Part shown: in pieces, positions 29,010-40,474 of the stretch
Layout: each line of letters starts with the position of its first letter
How positions within the stretch are numbered: position 1 is the stretch's first letter
Assembly: GCA_001931535.1 (NCBI GenBank)
Contig: CP016211.1
Span: forward strand, 4,375,573-4,439,572
Source: Minicystis rosea
GTDB lineage: Bacteria; Myxococcota_A; Polyangia; Polyangiales; Polyangiaceae
Direction of reading: 5' to 3'
Length of the DNA: 64,000 nucleotides
The notes under the pieces: model-generated
What the model saw: the letters and a program-made list of their open reading frames with translations, nothing else
Database searches by the model: none
Told to the model about the DNA's origin: nothing
Program-made: the position numbers and the translations under genes

Positions 29010-29526
29010 TCACCCTCCCCTGCCCGCAGCGACGCGCCCGCGTCGCACCTGCCCACGATCACCACGAGCCTCCGCGCTGCCCACGGCGGCGCGGCCGCGC
29101 ACCTCGCGCTCGATGCGAGGGCGAGCGACGCACACCCGTCCTCGACATGCGCGCGGCGAACAGACGCCTCGTGTCGCGAGCACAAGGCCCCTCACCTGTG
29201 ACTCCCATTCACATGCACGTTCCGAAACCGTGCCTTGGGGTCACAGTCATCCATGCACCTGTGCCCCGAGCGCACAGGTCCCATGGTCTGTATCCTCATT
29301 TCACCGGTCGCTTCTCGCCCCATGGCATCGTGTCCTCTTGACCCTTGATGCGAATCTGAGGTTCACTCGATCTCACGATGCTTGAACGGCGGCCCTCCGC
29401 CGCTCGTGCCTCGCCTTCCTTCGTTCGCAAGCTTTCTTTCTTCAGGTTCGGTACAGCCCGTCATCGCATCCGCGACGTCCCGTCGTGAGGTCGGTGGAGG
29501 GGTGTCTCCGGGCCGGCGGAGCATTC

Positions 29527-31242
29527 ATGACCATCAGGCCTTCGGCCCCCGAAGGGCCGAGATCCGATCTCGCCTCGCGCGTGCGCCGGCACGCTCCTGC
29601 GCTCGCCGTCGTGATCGCGGCGGCCCTCGTGGGCGGCGCGATGTTCGGGCGGTTTCTCTTTCCGTATGCGGTGCCCGTCGGGTTCGACGAAGCGTACATG
29701 GTGCCTTTCGCCGAGCGCGTGATAGACGGAAAGTTCCTTCCTTACGTCGACGCCGTGAGCCAGCGCGGGCCGGTCTTGTATTGGGTGCTCGCGCTGGGGC
29801 AGCTCGTCTTCGGACGCTACGAATGGATCGGTATCCGCGTCATCGCGCTCGCGGCTTGTCTCATCACCCTGGTGGCGACGTACCTCGCCGGCGTCGCGGC
29901 GCGCTGGCCGCTCGCGGGAGCGTTCGGCGGCGCGGCGACGGTCCTCGTCATCGCCCTTCACGGCGCGCCCGTGGCCCTCTGCGGCGAGGCGGTGGCCGCG
30001 CCTTGTCTCGCGCTCGCGTTCGCCGCCCTCGCGTTCGCGCAGAGGCGCGCACCGGCGGGCCGGCGGAGAATGGCGTGGCTCGCGCTCTCCGGCGCGCTCG
30101 CGGCGACGGCGACGCTGGCCAAGCAAACCACTGGGCTCGCGTCGGGACCGCTCCTCTTGTGGGTCCTCGCACAAGCATTCTCCGAAGCGCACGAGAGCCC
30201 TTCACGCGGGCGCTTCGCTTTCCTCCGCGAGCCGTTCGCGTTCCTCGCCGGCTGGGTCGCCGTGATGGCCACGCTCTTCGTTTGGTACGCGGCGCACCAC
30301 GCCCTCGCGGAGCTCGTCTATTGGAGCACCACGTACAACTCGACCATCTACATGGCGCCGTACAAGGCGCATTATTGGCGCACCATCTTCCGCTGGCTCG
30401 GAGCGCATCTCCCCGTGCTCGCCGCCGTGATTCTGGTGCTCGTGTTCGCGGTGGCCCGCACCGTCACCGCGGGCCGATGCTCGTCGGTGCGCCACGTAGC
30501 CGCGGCCTACGCGCGCTCCGGATTCGAGGTGACGGCGGCGCTGAATGCCGTGCTGCTCTTCGCCGCCGCTGCGCTGCCGGCGCGGTTCTGGTGGCATTAC
30601 TTCCTCGTCGTCTGGCCTTGGTTCGGCGTGGTCGCGGGCGCCATCGTCGAGATCGCGTTGCGTCGCGGAGCGGGCCCTACCCTGAGAAAACAAGCTCTCC
30701 TGGCCGGTCCACTGGCCGTGCTCATCGCCGGAGCGGGCGTGTTTCGGATGGCGGCCATCGAGGAGAAGCGCGCACACGGTGCCTACGGAAACCCGCGCAA
30801 GACGGCGCTGTGCGAGACGATCGACCGCCAAGCGCGACGCGGCGAGAGCATCTTCGTTTGGGGCTTCGAGGGAGACGTCTACATCAATTGCCGGCGCCGG
30901 CCGGCGACCCGGTTCACCTACCTGACGCTCGTCGCCGGCATCGTCCCGCCCTATTGGGATGTCGCCCGCCCCGATCGCGTGGCGCGCGATGCGCGGAAGC
31001 TCCTCTTGGCCGATCTCGAGAAGAGCCGCCCAGCGCTCGTCCTCGACTATCCCATTCACGGCTTCTCGATGACCCACGTCCCCGAGCTCTCGGAGCTCCT
31101 CGCGCGCGACTACTGCCCGCTCCCCCGCCCCAAAGGCAAGATGAAGCACCGCCCCAACCTTTATGGCCGGCGCAATGCGGAGACCTGTGAAGAATCGCTG
31201 AAGAAGACGGCTCGTCCGCGTCAGGCACGCAAAGGGCGATGA
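29527..31242 (+). CDS. GT-C fold membrane glycosyltransferase (ArnT/PMT, GT39/83-like)
   Basis: More than 10 predicted TM helices, an N-terminal Asp-containing loop (FDEAYMVPFAERVIDGKF) and a C-terminal soluble domain. ATG at 29527. Confidence 0.6.
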   Translation: MTIRPSAPEGPRSDLASRVRRHAPALAVVIAAALVGGAMFGRFLFPYAVPVGFDEAYMVPFAERVIDGKFLPYVDAVSQRGPVLYWVLALGQLVFGRYEWIGIRVIALAACLITLVATYLAGVAARWPLAGAFGGAATVLVIALHGAPVALCGEAVAAPCLALAFAALAFAQRRAPAGRRRMAWLALSGALAATATLAKQTTGLASGPLLLWVLAQAFSEAHESPSRGRFAFLREPFAFLAGWVAVMATLFVWYAAHHALAELVYWSTTYNSTIYMAPYKAHYWRTIFRWLGAHLPVLAAVILVLVFAVARTVTAGRCSSVRHVAAAYARSGFEVTAALNAVLLFAAAALPARFWWHYFLVVWPWFGVVAGAIVEIALRRGAGPTLRKQALLAGPLAVLIAGAGVFRMAAIEEKRAHGAYGNPRKTALCETIDRQARRGESIFVWGFEGDVYINCRRRPATRFTYLTLVAGIVPPYWDVARPDRVARDARKLLLADLEKSRPALVLDYPIHGFSMTHVPELSELLARDYCPLPRPKGKMKHRPNLYGRRNAETCEESLKKTARPRQARKGR

Positions 31243-31260: not shown

Positions 31261-32175
31261 TCAGGGCGCTCCCCATTGAATCTTGACGGTCCCGGATTCG
31301 GTGCACGGGCTCCAGCAGAATGGCTGTCCCTGGTTGTCGATGACCTTTTCCGTGTAGGAATAATCGAGCTGACCGGAAGAGAGCTTGCCCACGATGTGAT
31401 GGGTGGTCTGCCAAAGGCAGTTGTCGGGCGCGGAGACGACCGCGATGCCCTCCAAGAAAACCTCGCCGTTCTGCACGTTGCCCGAGAACGTGACGGAGCC
31501 GAGCTGCGCCGTGACGAGGCCGCCGCCGCAGGGAAACTCGATGAGCCCCATGCTCCCCTTCTCCACGGGGAAATCGATGCAATTCGGCGAGGAGGGCGTG
31601 GATCCGGTGACCTCGAGGACGGGCTTGCAATCACCGACCTCGCAATCGGCGTCGATGATGCCGTTGCAGTTGTCGTCGATGCCATTGCAGACTTCGATGT
31701 TGTCGGGGCCTTTGGAGCAGCCGTCGCACGTCATGACGTCGTCCGTGCAGAGATCGGAGTCGGGGCCGTCGCACGCCTCGCCGAGGTGAAAGCCCTCGTC
31801 GATTTGGCCATCGCAGTTGTCGTCGATGCCATTGCACACCTCGGGCGAGGGCTCGATCGCGCCCTCGCAGGGGCCGAGCACGCCGTCGTGACACGTGCGC
31901 AGGCCGGGCTTGCAAGCGCCGATGCTGCTGCCGCACACGACGGTCTCCCCTTCGCTGCATGCGGTGGGCGCGCCTCCCTGGCCCGCGCCGCCTTGGCTTG
32001 TGCCGCCCTGGCCCGCGTCGCTGCCGGTGGGCAGGCTGGAGCGCGCTCCGCAGGCGAGGATCGACGCGGAAACGAGCGCGAGGAAGCCGAGGCGGAGCAG
32101 CGGTTTCACGCCGGTGCTTCTACCACGATGACGCGCGGCGAGCGTCGATCCGCGGTCGAGGAGCGGCGCGCTCAC
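31261..32175 (-). CDS. MopE-like Cys-rich repeat lipoprotein (putative metal-binding motif)
   Basis: Three CNGIDDNCDG-type repeats (CNGIDDNCDGQIDEG, CNGIDDNCNGIIDADC); signal peptide LLRLGFLALVSASILACG. The GTG start overlaps the GST stop (GTGA). Confidence 0.6.
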   Translation of the reverse strand: MSAPLLDRGSTLAARHRGRSTGVKPLLRLGFLALVSASILACGARSSLPTGSDAGQGGTSQGGAGQGGAPTACSEGETVVCGSSIGACKPGLRTCHDGVLGPCEGAIEPSPEVCNGIDDNCDGQIDEGFHLGEACDGPDSDLCTDDVMTCDGCSKGPDNIEVCNGIDDNCNGIIDADCEVGDCKPVLEVTGSTPSSPNCIDFPVEKGSMGLIEFPCGGGLVTAQLGSVTFSGNVQNGEVFLEGIAVVSAPDNCLWQTTHHIVGKLSSGQLDYSYTEKVIDNQGQPFCWSPCTESGTVKIQWGAP

Positions 32176-32838
32176 AACGCTTCGGTCTGCGGGATGGTCC
32201 AGGGCTCGGCGATGGCCGCGGCCTCCCAGGCACGAAATGCCGGGTCGGCGAAGATGGCGTCGGCATAGGCCTGCGATGCGGGGCGCATCGGAACACCATA
32301 GGTGCGGAGACGCGTGGCGACGGGCGCATAGAAGGCATCGGCGATGGTGCGCGCGCCGAACAAGAAGGGACCACCCGCGCCGTAGCGCTCGCGCGTGTCA
32401 GCCCACAGCGCCTCGATGCGCGCGAGATCGGCCTGCGTGTCGTCGGGCCAGGCGCGCGGCGTGGTGCGGCGGCGGATGTTCATCGAGAGGTCACGGCGAA
32501 CCGCGCCGAAGCTCGAATGCATTTCGCAAGTCACGGCGCGGCAAATGGCACGCGTGCGCGGATCCTCGGGCCAGAGGTGAGCCGAAGGCGCGGCCTCCGC
32601 AGCCCATTCGGCGATGGCGAGCGAGTCCCAGATGGTGATGCCGTCGACCTCGAGCGCAGGGACGCGCCCGCTCGGCGAGACGGCGACCACTTCGGGGATC
32701 TGCGCTTTCCCATAACCGGGGCCGCCGAGCGGAATCACCCGCTCTTCGAAGGGAATGCCCGCCCAGGTGAGCACGAGCCACGGGCGCAGCGACCACGATG
32801 AATAGTTCTTGTTACCGATGTAGAGAACGGCGCTCATG
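32172..32838 (-). CDS. glutathione S-transferase
   Basis: ATG at 32838 (MSAVLYIGNKNYSSWSLRPW); thioredoxin-like N-domain with SxWS motif plus a helical C-domain. The upstream part of ORF ..33152 is a Arg-rich artefact. Confidence 0.75.
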
Positions 32839-33063
32839 CGCGCGAGGATAGTGCCTCGAACCGCGGGGCGCTCCCTCGATCGTGGCGCGGTGGATTCCGC
32901 CTGCGAGGTGGTCGCGATGCGCGACGGCGTACCGCGGCGGGCGCGTGGAGCCTCGCGTTCGTCGGATCCTCGCGCGGCGGGGCTTCTGGCCGTGCGTGTC
33001 CCGTGCCACCATGCGCCGGCTCGAACCCTTTCCCTTCCGCTTCCTGCGATCCGGATTCGAATC

Positions 33064-36000
33064 ATGACGAAGCTGACCGCCGCACTCCATGCCCTTTTCC
33101 TCGTCGCCGCGACGAGCTTCCTCGCCGCGTGCGGGCGCTCCGAAGTCGACATCTCCGTCGGTGGCTCATCGGCGACGAGCTGTCAGACGAACGCCGACTG
33201 CGCATCGACACCGGCCACGCCGCTGTGCCTGATACCACCCGGGCAGTGCGTCGCATGCTTGACCTCGCCGGACACGTGCCCGGCCGGCGAGACCTGCGAC
33301 GCCCAAACGCACACCTGCGTGCCGACCACGACGGGCTGTCAGAGCGACGCGGACTGCTCCGCGCCGACGCCGCACTGCCGGCTCGACACACACGTCTGCG
33401 TCGAGTGCACGAGCAACGAGCAGTGCCCCGGCGACGAGCAGTGCGCGAGCTTCCAATGCGTCGGCTTCTGCGGTGACGGATCGGCCTGCACCAACGGCAA
33501 GACCTGCTGCTCGCCGCTCTGCGTGGACGCGTCGAGCGATCCCGAGAACTGCGGCGGCTGCGGCATCAAGTGCGGGCCGTTCCCGCAGGCGTCGGGCTCG
33601 TGCTCGGGCGCGACGTGCACCGTCGGCCAATGCTTCCCCGGCTTCGCCAACTGCAACGGCCTCCTCAGCGACGGATGCGAGGTCGACACGGCCACCGATG
33701 CCACGAACTGCGGTGGATGCGGCATCACCTGCAAGCCCGATGAAACGTGCTCGGGCGGGACCTGCGCCGGGTCCTGCGGCGCCGTGGGCTCGTGCACGCC
33801 CACTCAAACGTGCTGCGGGACGCAGTGCGCGAACACGCAGAGCGATCCGCTGAACTGCGGGACCTGCGGCAACACTTGCACCGCGGTTCCGCAGGGCAAC
33901 ACCGCGTGCGTCTCGAGCGCGTGCCAGATCATCAACTGCGCGGCGGGCTTCGCCGACTGCAACGGCAAGATCATCGACGGCTGCGAAGCCGCCACCGACA
34001 AGGATCCCAACAACTGCGGCACCTGCGGGACGGTGTGCGCCGCGGGCTCCGTCTGCGTCGCGGGCACGTGCCAGTCCACGACCTGCAAGACCACGGGCTG
34101 CCCCGTGGGGCTCGCGTGCTGCGGTGTCGCCTGCACCGATACCAACAACGATCTCGGCAACTGCGGCGGCTGCGGCAACGCCTGCCCGCCGAACGCCACG
34201 GCGTGCATGGGCGGCGGCTGCTGCTTCCCGCAGCCCGGCGGCGGCGTCATCTGCTCCAGCGTGGTGTGCACGCCGCCGCTGCAGAACTGCGGCGGGACCT
34301 GCGTCGATCAGGGCACGGATCCCAGCAACTGCGGCGGCTGCGGCATCAAGTGCGGGCCCACCGAAACGTGCGTGAACGGCACGTGCACGGGCACGATCAC
34401 GTGCAACGGCGGCCCGGCGTGCGCGCCCACGCAGGCGTGCTGCGCGAGCGGGTGCGCGAGCACGGACACCGATCCGAAGAACTGCGGCAAGTGCGGCATC
34501 GTCTGCCCGGCCGGCAACAACTGCGTCGGCGGCTCCTGCCAGGCGACGTGCAACGGCGGGCCCACGTGCTCACCGACGCAGCAGTGCTGCTCGACCGGAT
34601 GCGCCAACACGGGCTCGGATCCGAACAACTGCGGCGGCTGCGGCATCGTTTGCCCGGCGGACACCACCTGCGTCAACGGCGCCTGCCAAGGCACGTGCAA
34701 CGGCGGACCGATGTGCGGCGCCGGACAGACCTGCTGCCCGAGCGGGTGCGCCAACACGACCAGCGACGTGAAGAATTGCGGCGGCTGCGGCATCGTCTGC
34801 GGCGACGAGCAGACCTGCAACAACGGCATGTGCACGACGCCCATGCAATGCAACGGCGGCCCGGCGTGCGGCGCCGGGCAGACCTGCTGCCCGACGGGCT
34901 GCGCGGATCTCAACAACGATCCCAACCACTGCGGCGGCTGCGCCACCGTGTGCGGGCCGACCGCGTCGTGCATCAATGGCTCGTGCGCGACCAACGAGGG
35001 CGCCTTCAATCCGATCGTGAATCCGACGTTCCTCGCGCCGGGCGTCCACAACTTCACGACGATCAACATCCCGGCGGGCGTCACCGTCTTCGTGGCCGGG
35101 CCGGGGCCGGCGTCGGGCACGCTCGATCTGCGCGCCACGGGCGCGATCGTCATCGACGGGACCATCGATCTCTCGGGCGGGCCCGGCACCCAAAACACCA
35201 TCACCTCGATGAGCACGCAGTCCGGCCGCGCCGGGAGCGGCGGTTACACGGGTGAGCCCTATCAATCGGCCACGCCTTCTTCAGCGTGCCAGTTCATCGC
35301 CGGCAACCCGGGTCAGCTCGGGTTCCAACTCCAGGGCACGCCGGGCACCTGCACCATCCTGTCGACGAGCATCTGCGTCTCGCAAATGGATCCGGCTGCG
35401 CTGGTGTTCACGGCGCCTCCGGCGATGTTCGGCGGCGGCGCAGGCGTGTTCACGGGCTTCCGTGGTTATGGCAGCGGCGGCGGCGGCCCGGCCGGCGGCG
35501 CGCCCGGCGCAATCGGGCCTGCCTTCGGCGGGCAACAGAACTGCTCGGGCGCTTCCGGCGGCGGCGGCGCCGTCGCGGGCAAGGGCGGCAATGCCGGCAA
35601 TGCCACCTACAATGGCAAGGACGGTGTGCTCGGACAGACGCAGTGCCAAGGCGTGATGGGCTTCCCGCCGGCCTACGTCGGCGGCGGCGGCGGCGGCAGC
35701 ATCGGTACACAAGCCGCCCTGGACCGCGCGGTGCTCACCACCTTCCAGACCGGCTCCGGCGGCGGCGGCGGCAGCGCCGATTACCTCAATCGTCCGGTGT
35801 TCGGCGGCACCTCGGGCGGCGGCGGCGGCGGCGGCGCGCTCAAGCTGTCCACGCCCGCGAGCATCACCATCAAGGGTCAGCTTCTCGCCAACGGCGGTGT
35901 GGGCGGCGATGCCTTCATCGGCAATGGCGCCGCGGCCGGCTGCGATCCGCAGCCCGGCGCGGCGGGTGGCGGTGGATCGGGCGGTGTGATCTACCTGTCG

Positions 36001-36237
36001 GCGCCGAGCGTCTCGGTGAGCAATGGTGCCGTCATCTCGGCGGCCGGGGGCGCTGGTGGCTTCGGCAGCTTGTTCGCGAGCGGCGGCGGCGGTGGCGCCG
36101 GTGGCCTCGGTCGGATCCGACTCTCGGTGTCGCCGGCGACGTGCTCGCTGAGCGGGACGTTCAAGCCGCCGCTCCAGGCTGGATGCGGGACGGCGAATGC
36201 GGCTGGGTTTGCATACGTGGGGACGTATCCGAATTGA
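33064..36237 (+). CDS. giant extracellular Cys-rich repeat lipoprotein (more than 20 DPxNCGxCGxxC repeats) with a Gly-rich C-terminal region
   Basis: ATG at 33064 and lipobox LAAC. Repeats such as SDPENCGGCGIKCG, TDPSNCGGCGIKCG and SDPNNCGGCGIVCP. The last ~350 aa are Gly-rich (GGGGGG runs). Confidence 0.75.
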   Translation: MTKLTAALHALFLVAATSFLAACGRSEVDISVGGSSATSCQTNADCASTPATPLCLIPPGQCVACLTSPDTCPAGETCDAQTHTCVPTTTGCQSDADCSAPTPHCRLDTHVCVECTSNEQCPGDEQCASFQCVGFCGDGSACTNGKTCCSPLCVDASSDPENCGGCGIKCGPFPQASGSCSGATCTVGQCFPGFANCNGLLSDGCEVDTATDATNCGGCGITCKPDETCSGGTCAGSCGAVGSCTPTQTCCGTQCANTQSDPLNCGTCGNTCTAVPQGNTACVSSACQIINCAAGFADCNGKIIDGCEAATDKDPNNCGTCGTVCAAGSVCVAGTCQSTTCKTTGCPVGLACCGVACTDTNNDLGNCGGCGNACPPNATACMGGGCCFPQPGGGVICSSVVCTPPLQNCGGTCVDQGTDPSNCGGCGIKCGPTETCVNGTCTGTITCNGGPACAPTQACCASGCASTDTDPKNCGKCGIVCPAGNNCVGGSCQATCNGGPTCSPTQQCCSTGCANTGSDPNNCGGCGIVCPADTTCVNGACQGTCNGGPMCGAGQTCCPSGCANTTSDVKNCGGCGIVCGDEQTCNNGMCTTPMQCNGGPACGAGQTCCPTGCADLNNDPNHCGGCATVCGPTASCINGSCATNEGAFNPIVNPTFLAPGVHNFTTINIPAGVTVFVAGPGPASGTLDLRATGAIVIDGTIDLSGGPGTQNTITSMSTQSGRAGSGGYTGEPYQSATPSSACQFIAGNPGQLGFQLQGTPGTCTILSTSICVSQMDPAALVFTAPPAMFGGGAGVFTGFRGYGSGGGGPAGGAPGAIGPAFGGQQNCSGASGGGGAVAGKGGNAGNATYNGKDGVLGQTQCQGVMGFPPAYVGGGGGGSIGTQAALDRAVLTTFQTGSGGGGGSADYLNRPVFGGTSGGGGGGGALKLSTPASITIKGQLLANGGVGGDAFIGNGAAAGCDPQPGAAGGGGSGGVIYLSAPSVSVSNGAVISAAGGAGGFGSLFASGGGGGAGGLGRIRLSVSPATCSLSGTFKPPLQAGCGTANAAGFAYVGTYPN

Positions 36238-36245
36238 GGGTGGGG

Positions 36246-36279
36246 TCAACCTGGGTGGGGTGAGCCCCACCCAGGTTGA
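36246..36279 (+). terminator. perfect 15-bp stem / 4-nt loop hairpin immediately after the stop codon of the giant Cys-rich gene
   Basis: tcaacctgggtgggg-tgag-ccccacccaggttga; GC-rich with no T-tract, so also compatible with a REP-like hairpin. Confidence 0.4.
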
Positions 36280-36440
36280 GGTTGAGCCCCGCGCAGATTG
36301 AAAAGGCAGCTGAGCCCCACCCGGGTTGAGCTGAGCCTCACCCAGGTTGACCCCACAGCCTGCTTCTTTCTCAGCCCACCCAGGTTGAGCTTTCCTCACC
36401 CAGGTTGAGCCCACCCCTGTACAGCTCGTTCAGGGGTGAG
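36267..36440. repeat. array of 5 direct repeats (C/T)CACCC(A/G)GGTTGA(G/C)C plus a second hairpin (cacccctg...caggggtg)
   Basis: Copies at about 36267, 36318, 36338, 36376 and 36396; the core AGGTTGAGC is shared with the 37277-37410 array. Confidence 0.6.
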
Positions 36441-36489
36441 GCAGCTTCAGCTCGACCTGATGGCGCGGTTGCGCCGCCTGCGCCAGCGC

Positions 36490-37203
36490 TCACACCATCG
36501 CTCTCCGCCCTGGTTGGATATCCAGCGACAGCTCGCCTCGCCGGAGAGCCTCCCAGGTTGCCTCCGGTGTGGCCGGTTGCCGAGCACACCACTCGAGATA
36601 CGCGAAGAACGTGATGTCAGGATCCCGCGCCTCCTCATCCGAGACATCAAAGCGCCCTTCGATGGCACGCTCCACCGCTGCCAACAGATTCTCGTGATAG
36701 CGCTCGTACACCGTCAGGTCCCGAAGCCACCGGAAGCGGGCAGTGTCGTGAGCGACCACCTCTGCCGCAGCGTCGCGCACCCGCTCCAGCCAACCCGGGT
36801 AGCACCGGAGCATCTGAAGATCGTAAGCAAACTGATTGCCATCGTGATGCGCGGCCAGGAGATGCTTGAGCACCCGCTCCGGAGAGCTCGCGAGCCCAGA
36901 CGCGTCCAGCGGAGCGATGGCTTGCTCCCAAACGAGAAACGGAAACCGCATCGGTCGATGACGTAGAAGCCGTGCCCGCAACGTCGGACGAACCGGGTGC
37001 TCCACACAGGTCCCGATCGTCTCGGATCGGAAGAGGATGCGCTGCCACATCCGCACGACGCCGAGAAAGATCTGCCAGAGATTGGGACACGGCTCCACCA
37101 GCGCCGCGGCCCGCACCCGCTCGAGGCCGCGATGGACCCGCTCAGGCTCGACCAGGATCAACCTCGCGAACCAGGGTAACGCGCGAACCTCGTCGGTCGT
37201 CAT
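36490..37203 (-). CDS. hypothetical protein flanked by AGGTTGAGC repeat arrays
   Basis: 237 aa; ATG at 37203; no recognisable domain. Confidence 0.45.
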   Translation of the reverse strand: MTTDEVRALPWFARLILVEPERVHRGLERVRAAALVEPCPNLWQIFLGVVRMWQRILFRSETIGTCVEHPVRPTLRARLLRHRPMRFPFLVWEQAIAPLDASGLASSPERVLKHLLAAHHDGNQFAYDLQMLRCYPGWLERVRDAAAEVVAHDTARFRWLRDLTVYERYHENLLAAVERAIEGRFDVSDEEARDPDITFFAYLEWCARQPATPEATWEALRRGELSLDIQPGRRAMV

Positions 37204-37276
37204 ATGCCACTTTTACCGGCCGGGGCCCGCGTTGGACAGGAGTGTTTTAACCGACGCCCTCAAAGCCCTCAGCCCC

Positions 37277-37410
37277 GACCGAGGTTGAGCCCAGCTAGAA
37301 ACCTCGATCGAGGTTGAGCCCAGCTCCCAGCTCACCGGAGCTCCCAACTCATCGGCGAGCCAGAAGCAGCGTGGCCCATCCTGACGCCTCGACCGAGGTT
37401 GAGCTGAGCT
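37277..37410. repeat. 3 direct repeats GA(C/T)CGAGGTTGAGC(C/T)(C/G)AGCT
   Basis: Copies at 37277-96, 37306-25 and 37391-410, between the hypothetical gene and the RAYT-like gene. Confidence 0.6.
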
Positions 37411-37710
37411 GAGCTGGAGCTGCGCCCAACATCCGATGCAAGGCATGCCCGCCGCACAGGGCCGCCGCTCGCTTCGCGACAAACCTTCGCCGTGCATCAT
37501 CCCATATGTCGTGAGGTGGCCGGTCTGACAGAGCGCCTCCTCCATCGACGATGCCATTCATCTCGACCCAGGTGACGCGGCCGCAGCCATCCACCGAAGA
37601 CCATCAGCGCATATCGCTCAAGAGCATCAGAGCACGCAACACCCCCGCAATTGACTTCACCAAACAATCCCTATCGCAACATCCCCCATCGCGACTGGCT
37701 CAAACATCGA

Positions 37711-38664
37711 TCAGCCTACGATACAAGTCGGCAGCAACCCACCAGCAGAACAGCTCGACGGTTCAGCCACGTCGGCGCCGTGAAACACCCGCATCCACCA
37801 TGTTCCGCTCGGGAATGCGACACTACGGAGGCCTGCGCGCCATCGCTCGATTGCAGCTCGATACGACATGCGAAACGAGCGAACGGCTTCCACGGCTCGG
37901 TGCCATGCACCCCCTTGCTCACGCCCAACGGCGAACGTGGGGTTGCGATCTCGCGCGGGCTCGAAGCTCGAAATGCGATCTTGTGGCGAGATCTTCCTCA
38001 CTCGCTCCGGCCCCAGAAAACGAAGCCCCTTTCGTCGCATCTCTGCATGCGCCTCCTGCTCGAGTCGCTCGACCTCGGCGGCAACTTCAGCCCGAAATGG
38101 ATCGGCCCCGCTTCGCTCGATCGAGGGAGGCAGCAGGATGGGCAGGGACACCTCCGCCGGCCATTGAGGATTGCTTGGATCGAAGTAGGTTTGAGGCCGG
38201 CTCGCGCGCAGCACCCCAGTCCCCACCTCGCTCGAGCCGACCATCGCGCCGGGCCACTCGCGCGCATGTCTGACGAGGCCTGCAGCTACGGGGTTTGCGA
38301 GAACATAAGCGATCTTCTCCACAATCGCAGCCCGTGTCAGCAGCCTGACGACGCTCGTGGCCTCATGGTCCCATACCGGCCCTTCCCATCGGCGGAGCAG
38401 CTTTGTACCGAGCGCCACCAAGCGATGAAAGAACTGCAAGAAACGTGGAAGAAGCCCATGCACGTCGGTCACCACGAGATGCAGGTGCGTCGACATCGCG
38501 CAAAATGCGTGCACCTGGAGACCCAATCGATGCGCCGACACCGCAAGCGCATAGGTCAAGAGCTGATTGATGCGCGCGTCGGGTCGGAAGAGGAGATGTC
38601 GACGCAACGTACGTCGGGTAATGAGGTAAGTCGCTCCGAGAACGACCTCGCGAGGTTGGCTCAT
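37711..38664 (-). mobile_element. IS200/IS605-family HuH Y1 transposase, long REP-associated (RAYT)-like form
   Basis: HuH motif MSTHLHLVV and catalytic-Tyr motif IAYVLANPVAAGLV (Y-x3-NPV-AGLV). 318 aa from ATG 38664; TTG 38694 is possible. Repeats flank it on both sides, and the sequence is locally AT-richer. Confidence 0.65.
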
Positions 38665-38779
38665 GCCCGAATGTATCTTCAAATATCGAGCCAAAGACTG
38701 AATCGAGCAATATCAACAGCTTGGGCAACCACGTAGGGCCTCGAAGCCCGCCAGCCCGCCAATTTCCGCCAGCCATTCA

Positions 38780-38951: not shown

Positions 38952-40474
38952 ATGTGCACGTACCTCTACGCAGCCTTCAGCCTCCGCAGCGGTGAGGAGG
39001 ATGGCCTTTCCCCTCACGAAGCCGCCGCCGTCGCGCGCTGGCGCCGTGAAATCATCGATATCGCCATCCAGGAGATGGGCCACCTCACGGCGGTATGGAA
39101 CATCACCGCCGCGCTCGGCGGCTCACCGAGGTTCGGCCGCGGCAACTTCCCCCTCGACCCGGGGGCCCTGCCTGCCGGCGTGGTGGTGAAGCTCGCCCCC
39201 TTCAGCGACGCCGTCCTCCAGCACTTCATCCACCTCGAGCGCCCCGAAGGCTCTTCCGAGCCCGACGGAGAGGGCTTTGCCCCCGAGTTCACCTATCAGC
39301 GCGGTTCGCATACTCCCCGCATCACCCCCATGCCCACCGATTACGACACGGTCGGTGCCTTTTACGCCTCGCTCGGCGCCTCTCTCCGCGCCTTCGTGGA
39401 GCACGTCGGTGAGGCCACGGCCTTCTGCGGTGATCCGGCCCTGCAACTTTCGCCCACGGAGGTCGCGCTCGCGGGCGCCAAACCCGTCATCTGTTTGAAG
39501 ACCTCGCTCGCCGCCTTCACCACCATCGTCGAGCAGGGCGAGGGCGCGCCGCTCCAATCGCGGGATTCGCACTATCAGAAATTCCTCGCCATCCGCACCG
39601 AGCTCGCGGAGCTCCAGGCGGCGAATCCGAGCTTTTCGCCGGCGTTTCCGGCCGCGCACAATCCCGTGCTCCGTCCGCCGGTGCGCCGCGAAGGGCGTGT
39701 TTGGCTGGAGAACGAGGAGGCCGCCGCCGCCGTCGATCTCGCCAACACGGGATATGCGCTCATGCTCCGGCTGATGGCGTATTCGTACACCGTGCCTCGG
39801 CCCACGGCCGAAAAGACGCTCTCCGTCGATCTCGCGCTCGGCCTCATGCGCGCCGTCACCTACCTCGCAGAGCGCGCGGTGCGTTTGCCCGCGGGCCCGT
39901 CGAATCCCGGTTGCAATGCGGGGATGTCGTTCTCCGCCCTGCGGGACGCAGCGCCGTTGCCCATGGGCCCGAGCGCGCGGCGCTTCTTCACCGAGCGGTT
40001 CGACGAGATGGTGCGGGCCGCAACCATCCTCGACGCGTCCGGCGATCGGCGGGTGAACACCGCGACACGCATCCTCACCGATCTCGCCAGGCGCGCGCAC
40101 CGCGGCTTCGACGCCGCGACGGCAGCGCAGGCCGCGGCGCCCGCCCCCGCTCCGGCTGTGCGCCCGACGACCGCGACGGCTGTGGCAGCGGCGGCCGCCG
40201 GCCCGGAGGCGCTTCCGGGCACCCCGCCGACGCCCGTCACCATCAATGGTGTCGATCACATCGAGGGCAAGAAGCTCACGCTGCTGTACGAAGGCAAGAA
40301 GTGCATTCACGCGCGCTTCTGTGTCACCGGCGCGCCGAAGGTGTTCATCGCCAACGTCCAAGGCCCGTGGATTCACCCCGACGCCGTGGATGTCGAAGCG
40401 CTCGTGGAGATCGCGCACATCTGCCCGTCCGGTGCGATTCGCTATCAGCGCAAGGACGGCAAGAGCGATGAAGG
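38952..40474 (+). CDS. ferritin-like domain + divergent 4Fe-4S mono-cluster domain protein (frame-0 segment of an apparently frameshifted gene)
   Basis: PF12902-like N-terminus ...EQLIHALYEAAELEHNLMCTYLYAAFSL...EMGHLTAVWNITAALGG. C-terminal GKKCIHARFCVTGAP...HICPSGAIRYQRKDG. No in-frame start exists upstream of 38952, although homology continues; ATG 38878 (MTAP) is in the +1 frame before a C6 run. Confidence 0.55.

Follow-up and report, generated by a model that had tools for sequence, protein, structure and literature searches.

Myxobacteria spend much of their coding capacity on huge cysteine-rich surface proteins, almost none of which has been studied. One locus that encodes such a protein is described here. 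The gene lies in a 64-kb stretch of the Minicystis rosea genome (contig CP016211.1; hereafter the window, in whose numbering all coordinates are given), at positions 33064-36237 of the + strand, and is called the Stig1 gene below. Its product was found to combine a lipoprotein signal peptide, an array of Stig1-type cysteine repeats and a conserved glycine-rich C-terminal domain, and it is most likely a lipid-anchored surface adhesin or matrix protein. In the reading that is favoured here, with a probability of about 0.55, it is an anchor-stalk-head envelope protein in which the repeats form a stalk that presents a ligand-binding head.

Gene, signal peptide and predicted sorting

A complete coding sequence for 1057 amino acids (aa) plus the stop codon was found at 33064-36237 (+), where the initial annotation of the window had placed a protein of 1058 aa. 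It encodes a modular cysteine-rich predicted lipoprotein. The open reading frame (ORF) is identical to A7982_03768 on the 16.04-Mb contig of M. rosea (100% identity, 100% coverage), for which the existing annotation is 'hypothetical protein'. The G+C content of the window is about 69%. The frame also opens upstream, at 32836; since the N-termini of the orthologues align at the methionine encoded at 33064, with the signal peptide next to it, this position was taken as the start.

The lipoprotein signal peptide comprises aa 1-23 (MTKLTAALHALFLVAATSFLAAC; 33064-33132, +) and ends in the lipobox LAAC, where Cys23 is the candidate lipidated +1 residue. Lipoproteins were recognised by an N-terminal basic residue, a hydrophobic stretch, a lipobox of the form [LVI][ASTVI][GAS]C and a cysteine located about 15-35 residues from the start. 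In the M. rosea protein, the basic residue is K3, the hydrophobic stretch is LTAALHALFLVAATSF and the lipobox is LAAC, which contains Cys23. Both Cys23 and Arg25 are invariant among 11 orthologues, and in 42 sequences Cys23 is at least 90% conserved. According to AlphaFold2 (AF2), aa 3-21 would form a helix and aa 22-37 a disordered linker. The extracellular location that had been assumed initially implies export, which is supported by this conserved signal peptide.

The precursor would be exported by the Sec pathway, the signal peptide would be cleaved and Cys23 would be acylated. In Myxococcus xanthus, a Lys at position +2 keeps lipoproteins in the inner membrane and an Ala at +7 sends them to the matrix, while the substitution A27D in FibA causes outer-membrane retention and blocks export to the matrix (PMC3222651). 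The M. rosea protein carries Gly at +2 and Asp at +7. By the M. xanthus rules, these residues would probably direct the protein to the outer membrane, and neither keep it in the inner membrane nor release it into the matrix. From the outer membrane it may be flipped to the cell surface.

The same residues bear on an alternative, in which the protein is a structural component of matrix or fibrils that is shed or exported as a matrix lipoprotein, and builds or cross-links the matrix without a specific external ligand. M. xanthus does secrete lipoproteins into its matrix (PMC3222651), and cysteine-rich proteins are typical of extracellular matrices (PMC3325183). Nevertheless, this alternative appears unlikely. 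The +7 residue is Asp here, the very change that stops matrix export of FibA (PMC3222651), and +7 Ala was observed in only one of 10 other aligned orthologues. Moreover, a polymerisation signal is not evident.

Cysteine-rich stalk

The linker is followed by two modules of about 52 aa with eight cysteines each (aa 38-135; 33175-33468, +), of the pattern C..DADC..P.C...C V.C...CP..E.C...C. They are recognisable in the DNA as a direct repeat with a spacing of 156 nt. Their Pfam matches were sub-threshold only, and the first of the two is missing from several orthologues. The adjoining region is a Stig1-type, MXAN_6577-like repeat array (aa 136-645; 33469-34998, +) of 10 units with 96 cysteines, predicted to form a disulfide-rich stalk.

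In the array, the motif D..[NH]CG.C[GA]..C was located at aa 159, 212, 261, 314, 363, 419, 470, 519, 568 and 619. Nine of the copies are strict and one is degenerate, and the successive spacings are 53, 49, 53, 49, 56, 51, 49, 49 and 51 aa. The initial annotation had proposed more than 20 repeats recurring about every 40 aa. Both figures had to be corrected, the first to these 10 copies and the second to a spacing of 49-56 aa, with a repeat of 147 nt (49 aa) at the DNA level. The repeat itself was confirmed: the core CG.C[GA]..C was observed 10 times in aa 136-645, whereas 5000 shuffles that preserved the composition contained it 0.15 times on average and never more than 3 times. The period is fairly regular, in two unit flavours. 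A six-frame scan of the 64-kb window showed the motif [NHD]CG.C[GA]..C to be confined to the Stig1 ORF.

In its first half, the array alternates between the two unit types. The 10-Cys unit has 49-51 aa and a cysteine spacing of 4-2-3-5-4-(3 to 5)-5-5-0-3-5, reproduced in six units, and the 8-Cys unit has 53 aa and contains C..GFADCNG...DGCE. A tandem DNA repeat of 147 nt (49 aa) was found at 34398-34953 (+), with 3.7 copies that are 75-79% identical. These copies are the four units of the stalk that were duplicated most recently.

The likeness to Stig1 that had been noticed initially was borne out by profile searches. The Pfam model PF04885 (Stig1) matched with 93 bits versus a gathering score of 24.1 (E 1.6e-26) in nine stretches, which mostly cover the C-terminal half of the model, the best one corresponding to profile positions 41-83 of 85. 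The NCBIfam model NF041328 ('MXAN_6577-like cysteine-rich protein') matched with 173.6 bits versus a cut-off of 100 (E 2.2e-51) in five stretches, and current NCBI annotation rules would name the protein after it. More than 3400 homologues were found at E <= 1e-5, mostly in Polyangiales genomes and metagenomes. Thousands of sequences make up this very large, uncharacterised family, of which the Stig1 gene is an ordinary representative. The suggestion that such repeats are rarely described in bacteria is correct for the literature and incorrect for the sequences. No paper was found on MXAN_6577 or on bacterial Stig1 repeats. The sole literature match for Stig1 together with myxobacteria was false, being due to peptide names such as 'Stig_102', and neither Stig1 nor cysteine is mentioned in the M. 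rosea genome paper.

In the full-length AF2 model, based on an alignment of 42 sequences, the stalk units adopt paired β-hairpins with a predicted local distance difference test (pLDDT) score of about 75-88. The predicted template modelling score (pTM) of the whole model was 0.47, a low value that would be expected for an elongated chain. When this model was compared with the PDB by Foldseek, only a weak, non-significant likeness to tandem EGF, furin-like and TNFR modules was detected (E at least 0.0096).

The total of 121 cysteines consists of one in the lipobox, 16 in aa 24-135, 96 in aa 136-645 and 8 in the head, so the number is even in every module (16, 96 and 8). The two 8-Cys modules and the ten Stig1-type units together comprise about 600 residues and 112 cysteines, which would suffice for as many as 56 disulfides. 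Upon oxidative folding, about 60 disulfides could be formed in the protein, giving a stiff stalk of small β-hairpin modules. A different use of so many cysteines, which make up 16.6% of aa 26-700, would be metal binding or redox buffering in the manner of metallothioneins, and a neighbouring ORF (31261-32175, -) indeed carries PF11617 motifs, known as MopE motifs. This explanation is highly improbable, as the protein is predicted to be exported to an oxidising compartment, the cysteine counts are even per module and the positions of the repeat cysteines are invariant across orthologues. In addition, the β-hairpin modules predicted here resemble, if weakly, EGF, furin-like and TNFR modules, and the MopE-motif gene is not maintained as a neighbour across the five other orthologue loci examined.

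Glycine-rich head

The remainder of the protein (aa 646-1057; 34999-36234, +) is a glycine-rich head domain with 8 cysteines and several conserved motifs, among them GGGGGSADYLNRP, CDPQPGAAGGGGSGG, GRIRLS and a terminal YPN. It was modelled as a β-helix-like solenoid. The initial annotation had described a Gly-rich tail in the C-terminal 350 aa; the glycine-richness was found as described (28% Gly over aa 700-1057), and the length was too short for a domain of about 410 aa.

The head alone did not match any Pfam (E <= 1), NCBIfam or PHROG family. Searches of PDB chains with the full protein sequence and with the head profile gave either nothing or the Gly-Ser linkers of single-chain variable fragments (scFv; E > 0.5), and Foldseek of the head against the PDB returned nothing significant. 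Kinship with Gly_rich_2 (PF21722) was considered and rejected, because in an hhalign comparison with two Gly_rich_2 proteins the alignment was limited to the Cys repeats and to the initial ~30 residues at the junction.

An AF2 run on the head only, with an alignment of 58 sequences, yielded a pLDDT of 95.7 and a pTM of 0.93. The nearest solved folds to this model were HxuA, HMW1, FHA, EtpA, tapirin, Candida Awp proteins and autotransporter passengers. The β-helix-like tail that had been postulated initially is consistent with this modelled solenoid, whose nearest folds are adhesin β-helices. The head is a conserved domain for which there is no existing family model, of a β-helix fold class that is familiar. 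In its central ~150 residues, which are rich in Gly runs, very little regular secondary structure was modelled, with a pLDDT above 89 in the head-only run. This centre, which is probably rich in disulfides, could form a polyglycine-based binding surface. It is a tentative and rather doubtful proposal that the head represents an undescribed, widespread extracellular domain family with a partly non-classical β-helix, a new polyglycine-based binding surface and a new class of ligand.

β-Helices are also found in enzymes, and the head could degrade polysaccharides, as a lyase or depolymerase of the kind known from pectate lyases or tailspikes, for which the stalk would be a mere spacer. Genes for a GH11 protein and a cellulase are located near one orthologue. 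However, glycoside-hydrolase neighbours are not conserved across the orthologue loci, no carbohydrate-active Pfam family matches, and the structures that match best are adhesin β-helices without enzymatic function. Glycine accounts for most of the invariant positions, and no conserved group of acidic or basic residues suited to catalysis stands out. An enzymatic head is therefore quite unlikely.

Since the best structural matches of the head are two-partner-secretion (TPS) domains, a TpsA/FHA-like exoprotein was also considered. Both the place of the domain within the protein and the lack of a partner gene contradict this idea, which is hardly tenable. The TPS domain is N-terminal and the head is C-terminal; neither Haemagg_act (PF05860) nor any other Pfam family matches the head, and the protein has its own lipoprotein signal peptide. 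The scanned ORFs adjoining the gene match no TpsB-type family, and no POTRA or TpsB-type Pfam match was found among the genes called within 6-10 kb of the orthologues.

Conservation and modularity

Stalk and head were found to differ sharply in conservation. Identity to orthologues is 50% for the stalk (aa 136-641) and 69% for the head (aa 646-1057), and these values decrease to 32% and 59%, respectively, when Cys and Gly are left aside. Whole repeat units are inserted or deleted between orthologues, and the head-bearing homologues have from 2 to 14 copies of the motif. Such a conservation pattern, together with the gain and loss of units, is the signature that would be expected of a scaffold or spacer bearing a functional terminal domain.

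When 1.84 billion representative proteins were searched with the head profile, 175 clusters (at 50% identity) were detected at E <= 1e-30, and the number rose to 908 at E <= 1e-10. The match ends almost always at the last residue of the protein. The hosts belong to Myxococcota and Desulfobacterota, and include a 7437-aa Ig-like protein of Desulfopila. When the N-terminal partners of the head were inspected in 64 representatives, MopE motifs were found in 14, Stig1 in 11 and EGF_CA in 3. Big_9, cadherin-like, disintegrin, filamin and Dicty_CTDC domains also occur as partners in this set, and Big_2 in further proteins. Conversely, Stig1 stalks elsewhere in Polyangiales bear other heads, namely Gly_rich_2, DUF5648 and Fibrinogen_C.

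Many metagenome proteins of 406-470 aa, such as P0121, P0122, P0130 and P0143, seem to consist of the head alone. They start exactly at the junction of stalk and head, for example with MCAVNEGAF or VSGTCAASEGAF, and have no signal peptide. They were not taken as evidence of a free-standing head domain, as they probably result from gene calls that were truncated in DNA of high GC content and rich in repeats. Given the likelihood of such truncation, counts of domain architectures from metagenomes need care.

The exchange of parts also bears on the idea that the Stig1 repeats are themselves the active part, binding receptors or lipids as in plants and possibly released as peptides. The repeats belong to PF04885, and STIG1 of tomato, which promotes the growth of pollen tubes, binds the kinases LePRK1 and LePRK2 at their extracellular domains (PMC6275014); in the reference list of that article, the title of one paper reports binding of phosphatidylinositol 3-phosphate. 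Yet the residues of the repeats outside the scaffold are poorly conserved (the 32% given above), the number of units varies freely and the same repeats precede many unrelated heads. On these three grounds a spacer fits better than a specific ligand, and it is very unlikely that the repeats are the active part.

Function of the protein

Taken as an anchor-stalk-head protein, the product of the Stig1 gene would be held in the outer membrane by its lipid anchor. The disulfide-bonded stalk would be rod-shaped and would act as a rigid, protease-resistant spacer, the length of which can be adjusted in evolution. The β-helix head would be held out for binding to a surface, to a matrix polymer or to another cell, either kin or prey. 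A role as adhesin or matrix protein can reasonably be inferred from this architecture.

Several observations count against this proposal. The sorting rules that were applied by analogy derive from M. xanthus, a member of another suborder. The centre of the head (aa ~710-920) was modelled with confidence in the head-only AF2 run only, its pLDDT being 38-78 in the full-length model. The conserved residues of the head are mostly glycines and hydrophobic residues, because of which no binding site could be identified. A conserved neighbour that gives a functional hint was not found at the orthologue loci, and experimental work on the protein itself or on its bacterial homologues was not retrieved by the literature search.

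As a whole, the protein belongs to the many modular cysteine-rich envelope proteins of Polyangiales. The locus is of interest as a clean example of this build, with a lipobox anchor, an adjustable Stig1-type stalk and an exchangeable head, and it sets the boundaries of a conserved head domain for which there is no family model. Were the ligand of the head identified, the attachment of Polyangiales to substrates, prey or kin could be better understood. In protein engineering, the disulfide-locked modules of the stalk could be of use as rigid spacers.

Genomic context and 3' hairpin

Upstream of the Stig1 gene, a GST-like ORF (32172-32810, -; GST_N_2, E 1.4e-15) and the MopE-motif ORF (31261-32175, -) were found. 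The latter encodes a Cys-rich predicted lipoprotein of 304 aa with two PF11617 motifs (E 4.5e-10). Its N-terminus is lipobox-like (…SASILAC), and its C-terminal half could not be assigned to any family. In other proteins, the N-terminal partner seen most often with the Gly-rich head is likewise the MopE motif (14/64), described as 'putative metal-binding'. The 4-nt overlap between the GST-like ORF and the start of the MopE-motif gene points to an operon of these two genes that diverges from the Stig1 gene. Further upstream, an ORF of 585 aa (29485-31242, +) was matched by neither Pfam nor NCBIfam models at the thresholds applied.

Downstream of the Stig1 gene, an unassigned ORF of 237 aa (36490-37203, -) is followed by a RAYT-like ORF of 327 aa (37711-38694, -), the match of which to NF047646 is sub-threshold (E 6e-13; 48.9 bits vs a cut-off of 80). 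Another ORF (38952-40400, +) matched TIGR04492, at positions 798-935 of the model that belong to the C-terminal part of VioB, with 50.7 bits vs a cut-off of 1250. As the match is weak and partial, a VioB orthologue was rejected.

The neighbourhood was compared with six orthologue loci (L001, L002 and L006-L009), and no gene neighbour was common to the window and any of them. Shared synteny was detected only between L001 and L006/L007, through CvfB-like, LigB and HSP33 genes. In this one lineage of Polyangiales, the orthologue is located between the gene of a CvfB-like S1-domain protein and that of HSP33, a redox-regulated chaperone; the arrangement is absent from the window and from L002, L008 and L009. 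Nothing at the orthologue loci is shared with the window. The Stig1 gene appears to form a monocistronic unit and to have no dedicated partner. A σ70 promoter scan yielded nothing upstream of the gene.

The perfect 15-bp hairpin that had been reported directly after the gene is present. It is an inverted repeat with a loop of 4 nt (36246-36260/36265-36279, +) and starts 9 nt after the stop codon. As RNA, it has a folding energy of -43.9 kcal/mol (z = -6.4). The terminator scan did not call it, as it has no U tract, and an Rfam scan of 32700-37700 gave only two chance-level matches, far below the gathering scores, which leaves the hairpin without a family. The hairpin may stabilise or terminate the transcript as a 3' stem-loop of the mRNA. 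A simple terminator was rejected, given the missing U tract and the fact that the hairpin is an inverted pair of a short repeat that is clustered locally.

The intergenic cluster (36246-36426) contains 6-7 copies of CACCCAGGTTGA(GC) / CACCCAGGTTGAGC, of 12-14 nt, and the hairpin consists of the first two copies of CACCCAGGTTGA, mutually inverted. The window contains six copies of this 12-mer, all of them within 36246-36408, with 0.09 copies expected. Three copies of a related repeat, CGAGGTTGAGC(C/T)(C/G)AGCT, were found at 37260-37410. The two clusters flank the unassigned 237-aa ORF, and the RAYT-like ORF is located 1.3 kb from the hairpin. On sequence grounds, the short-repeat clusters and the RAYT-like ORF may represent a REP/RAYT-type arrangement in a myxobacterium. 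A scan of genome contigs for the inverted pair gave three matches in unrelated genomes; the copy of the window itself was not returned, and M. rosea is apparently outside the collection.

Comparison with known systems

Plant STIG1 proteins carry a single Stig1 domain. The M. rosea protein shares with them the Cys framework with its D..NCG.CG..C core (PF04885), and like them it would be secreted and disulfide-rich. In contrast to the plant proteins, it has ten tandem units, is a predicted bacterial lipoprotein and bears a large, unrelated head. The plant proteins are small cysteine-rich secreted proteins, belonging to the CRPs of 4-16 kDa, and are ligands of pollen receptor kinases (PMC6275014). 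The resemblance to the NF041328 family lies in the repeat region, which is matched above the cut-off; this model does not cover the head, and the family has no characterised member.

Stalked ice-binding proteins also place a β-helix on a stalk, combining an Ig-like domain with a DUF3494 β-helix, as in IBP_1 of Shewanella frigidimarina (6bg8). The head of M. rosea has no sequence match to DUF3494 and comes from a soil myxobacterium, and nothing indicates that it binds ice.

As to the fold of the head, it can be compared with right-handed β-helix adhesins, such as the TpsA domains of HxuA (4i84), HMW1 (2odl), FHA (1rwr) and EtpA (8vba), autotransporter passengers, tapirins and the A-domains of Candida Awp proteins. 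Only about a third of the M. rosea head aligns with them; there is no sequence relationship and no Foldseek match, and the head differs in being C-terminal and extremely Gly-rich (28%), with 8 Cys. It is not a member of TpsA, as the likeness is structural and confined to the C-terminal domain, with neither a Pfam match nor a TpsB-like neighbour.

Searches for the Cys-rich repeats TIGR04201 and for MYXO-CTERM (TIGR03901), both of which are parts of TraA of M. xanthus, gave no match, the NCBIfam scan of the protein at E <= 1 having returned NF041328 only. Its C-terminus (...AYVGTYPN) has neither a hydrophobic tail nor an Arg/Lys tail. TraA consists of a PA14 head, TIGR04201 repeats and a MYXO-CTERM anchor, and its Cys-rich tandem repeats have been proposed to be a rigid stalk that presents the binding domain (PMC3325183). 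The polarity of the M. rosea protein is the reverse, with the anchor at the N-terminus (lipobox) and the Gly-rich β-helix head at the C-terminus. By analogy, however, it would share with TraA, at the surface of a myxobacterial cell, the same plan of a binding head, a Cys-rich stalk of tandem repeats and a membrane anchor.

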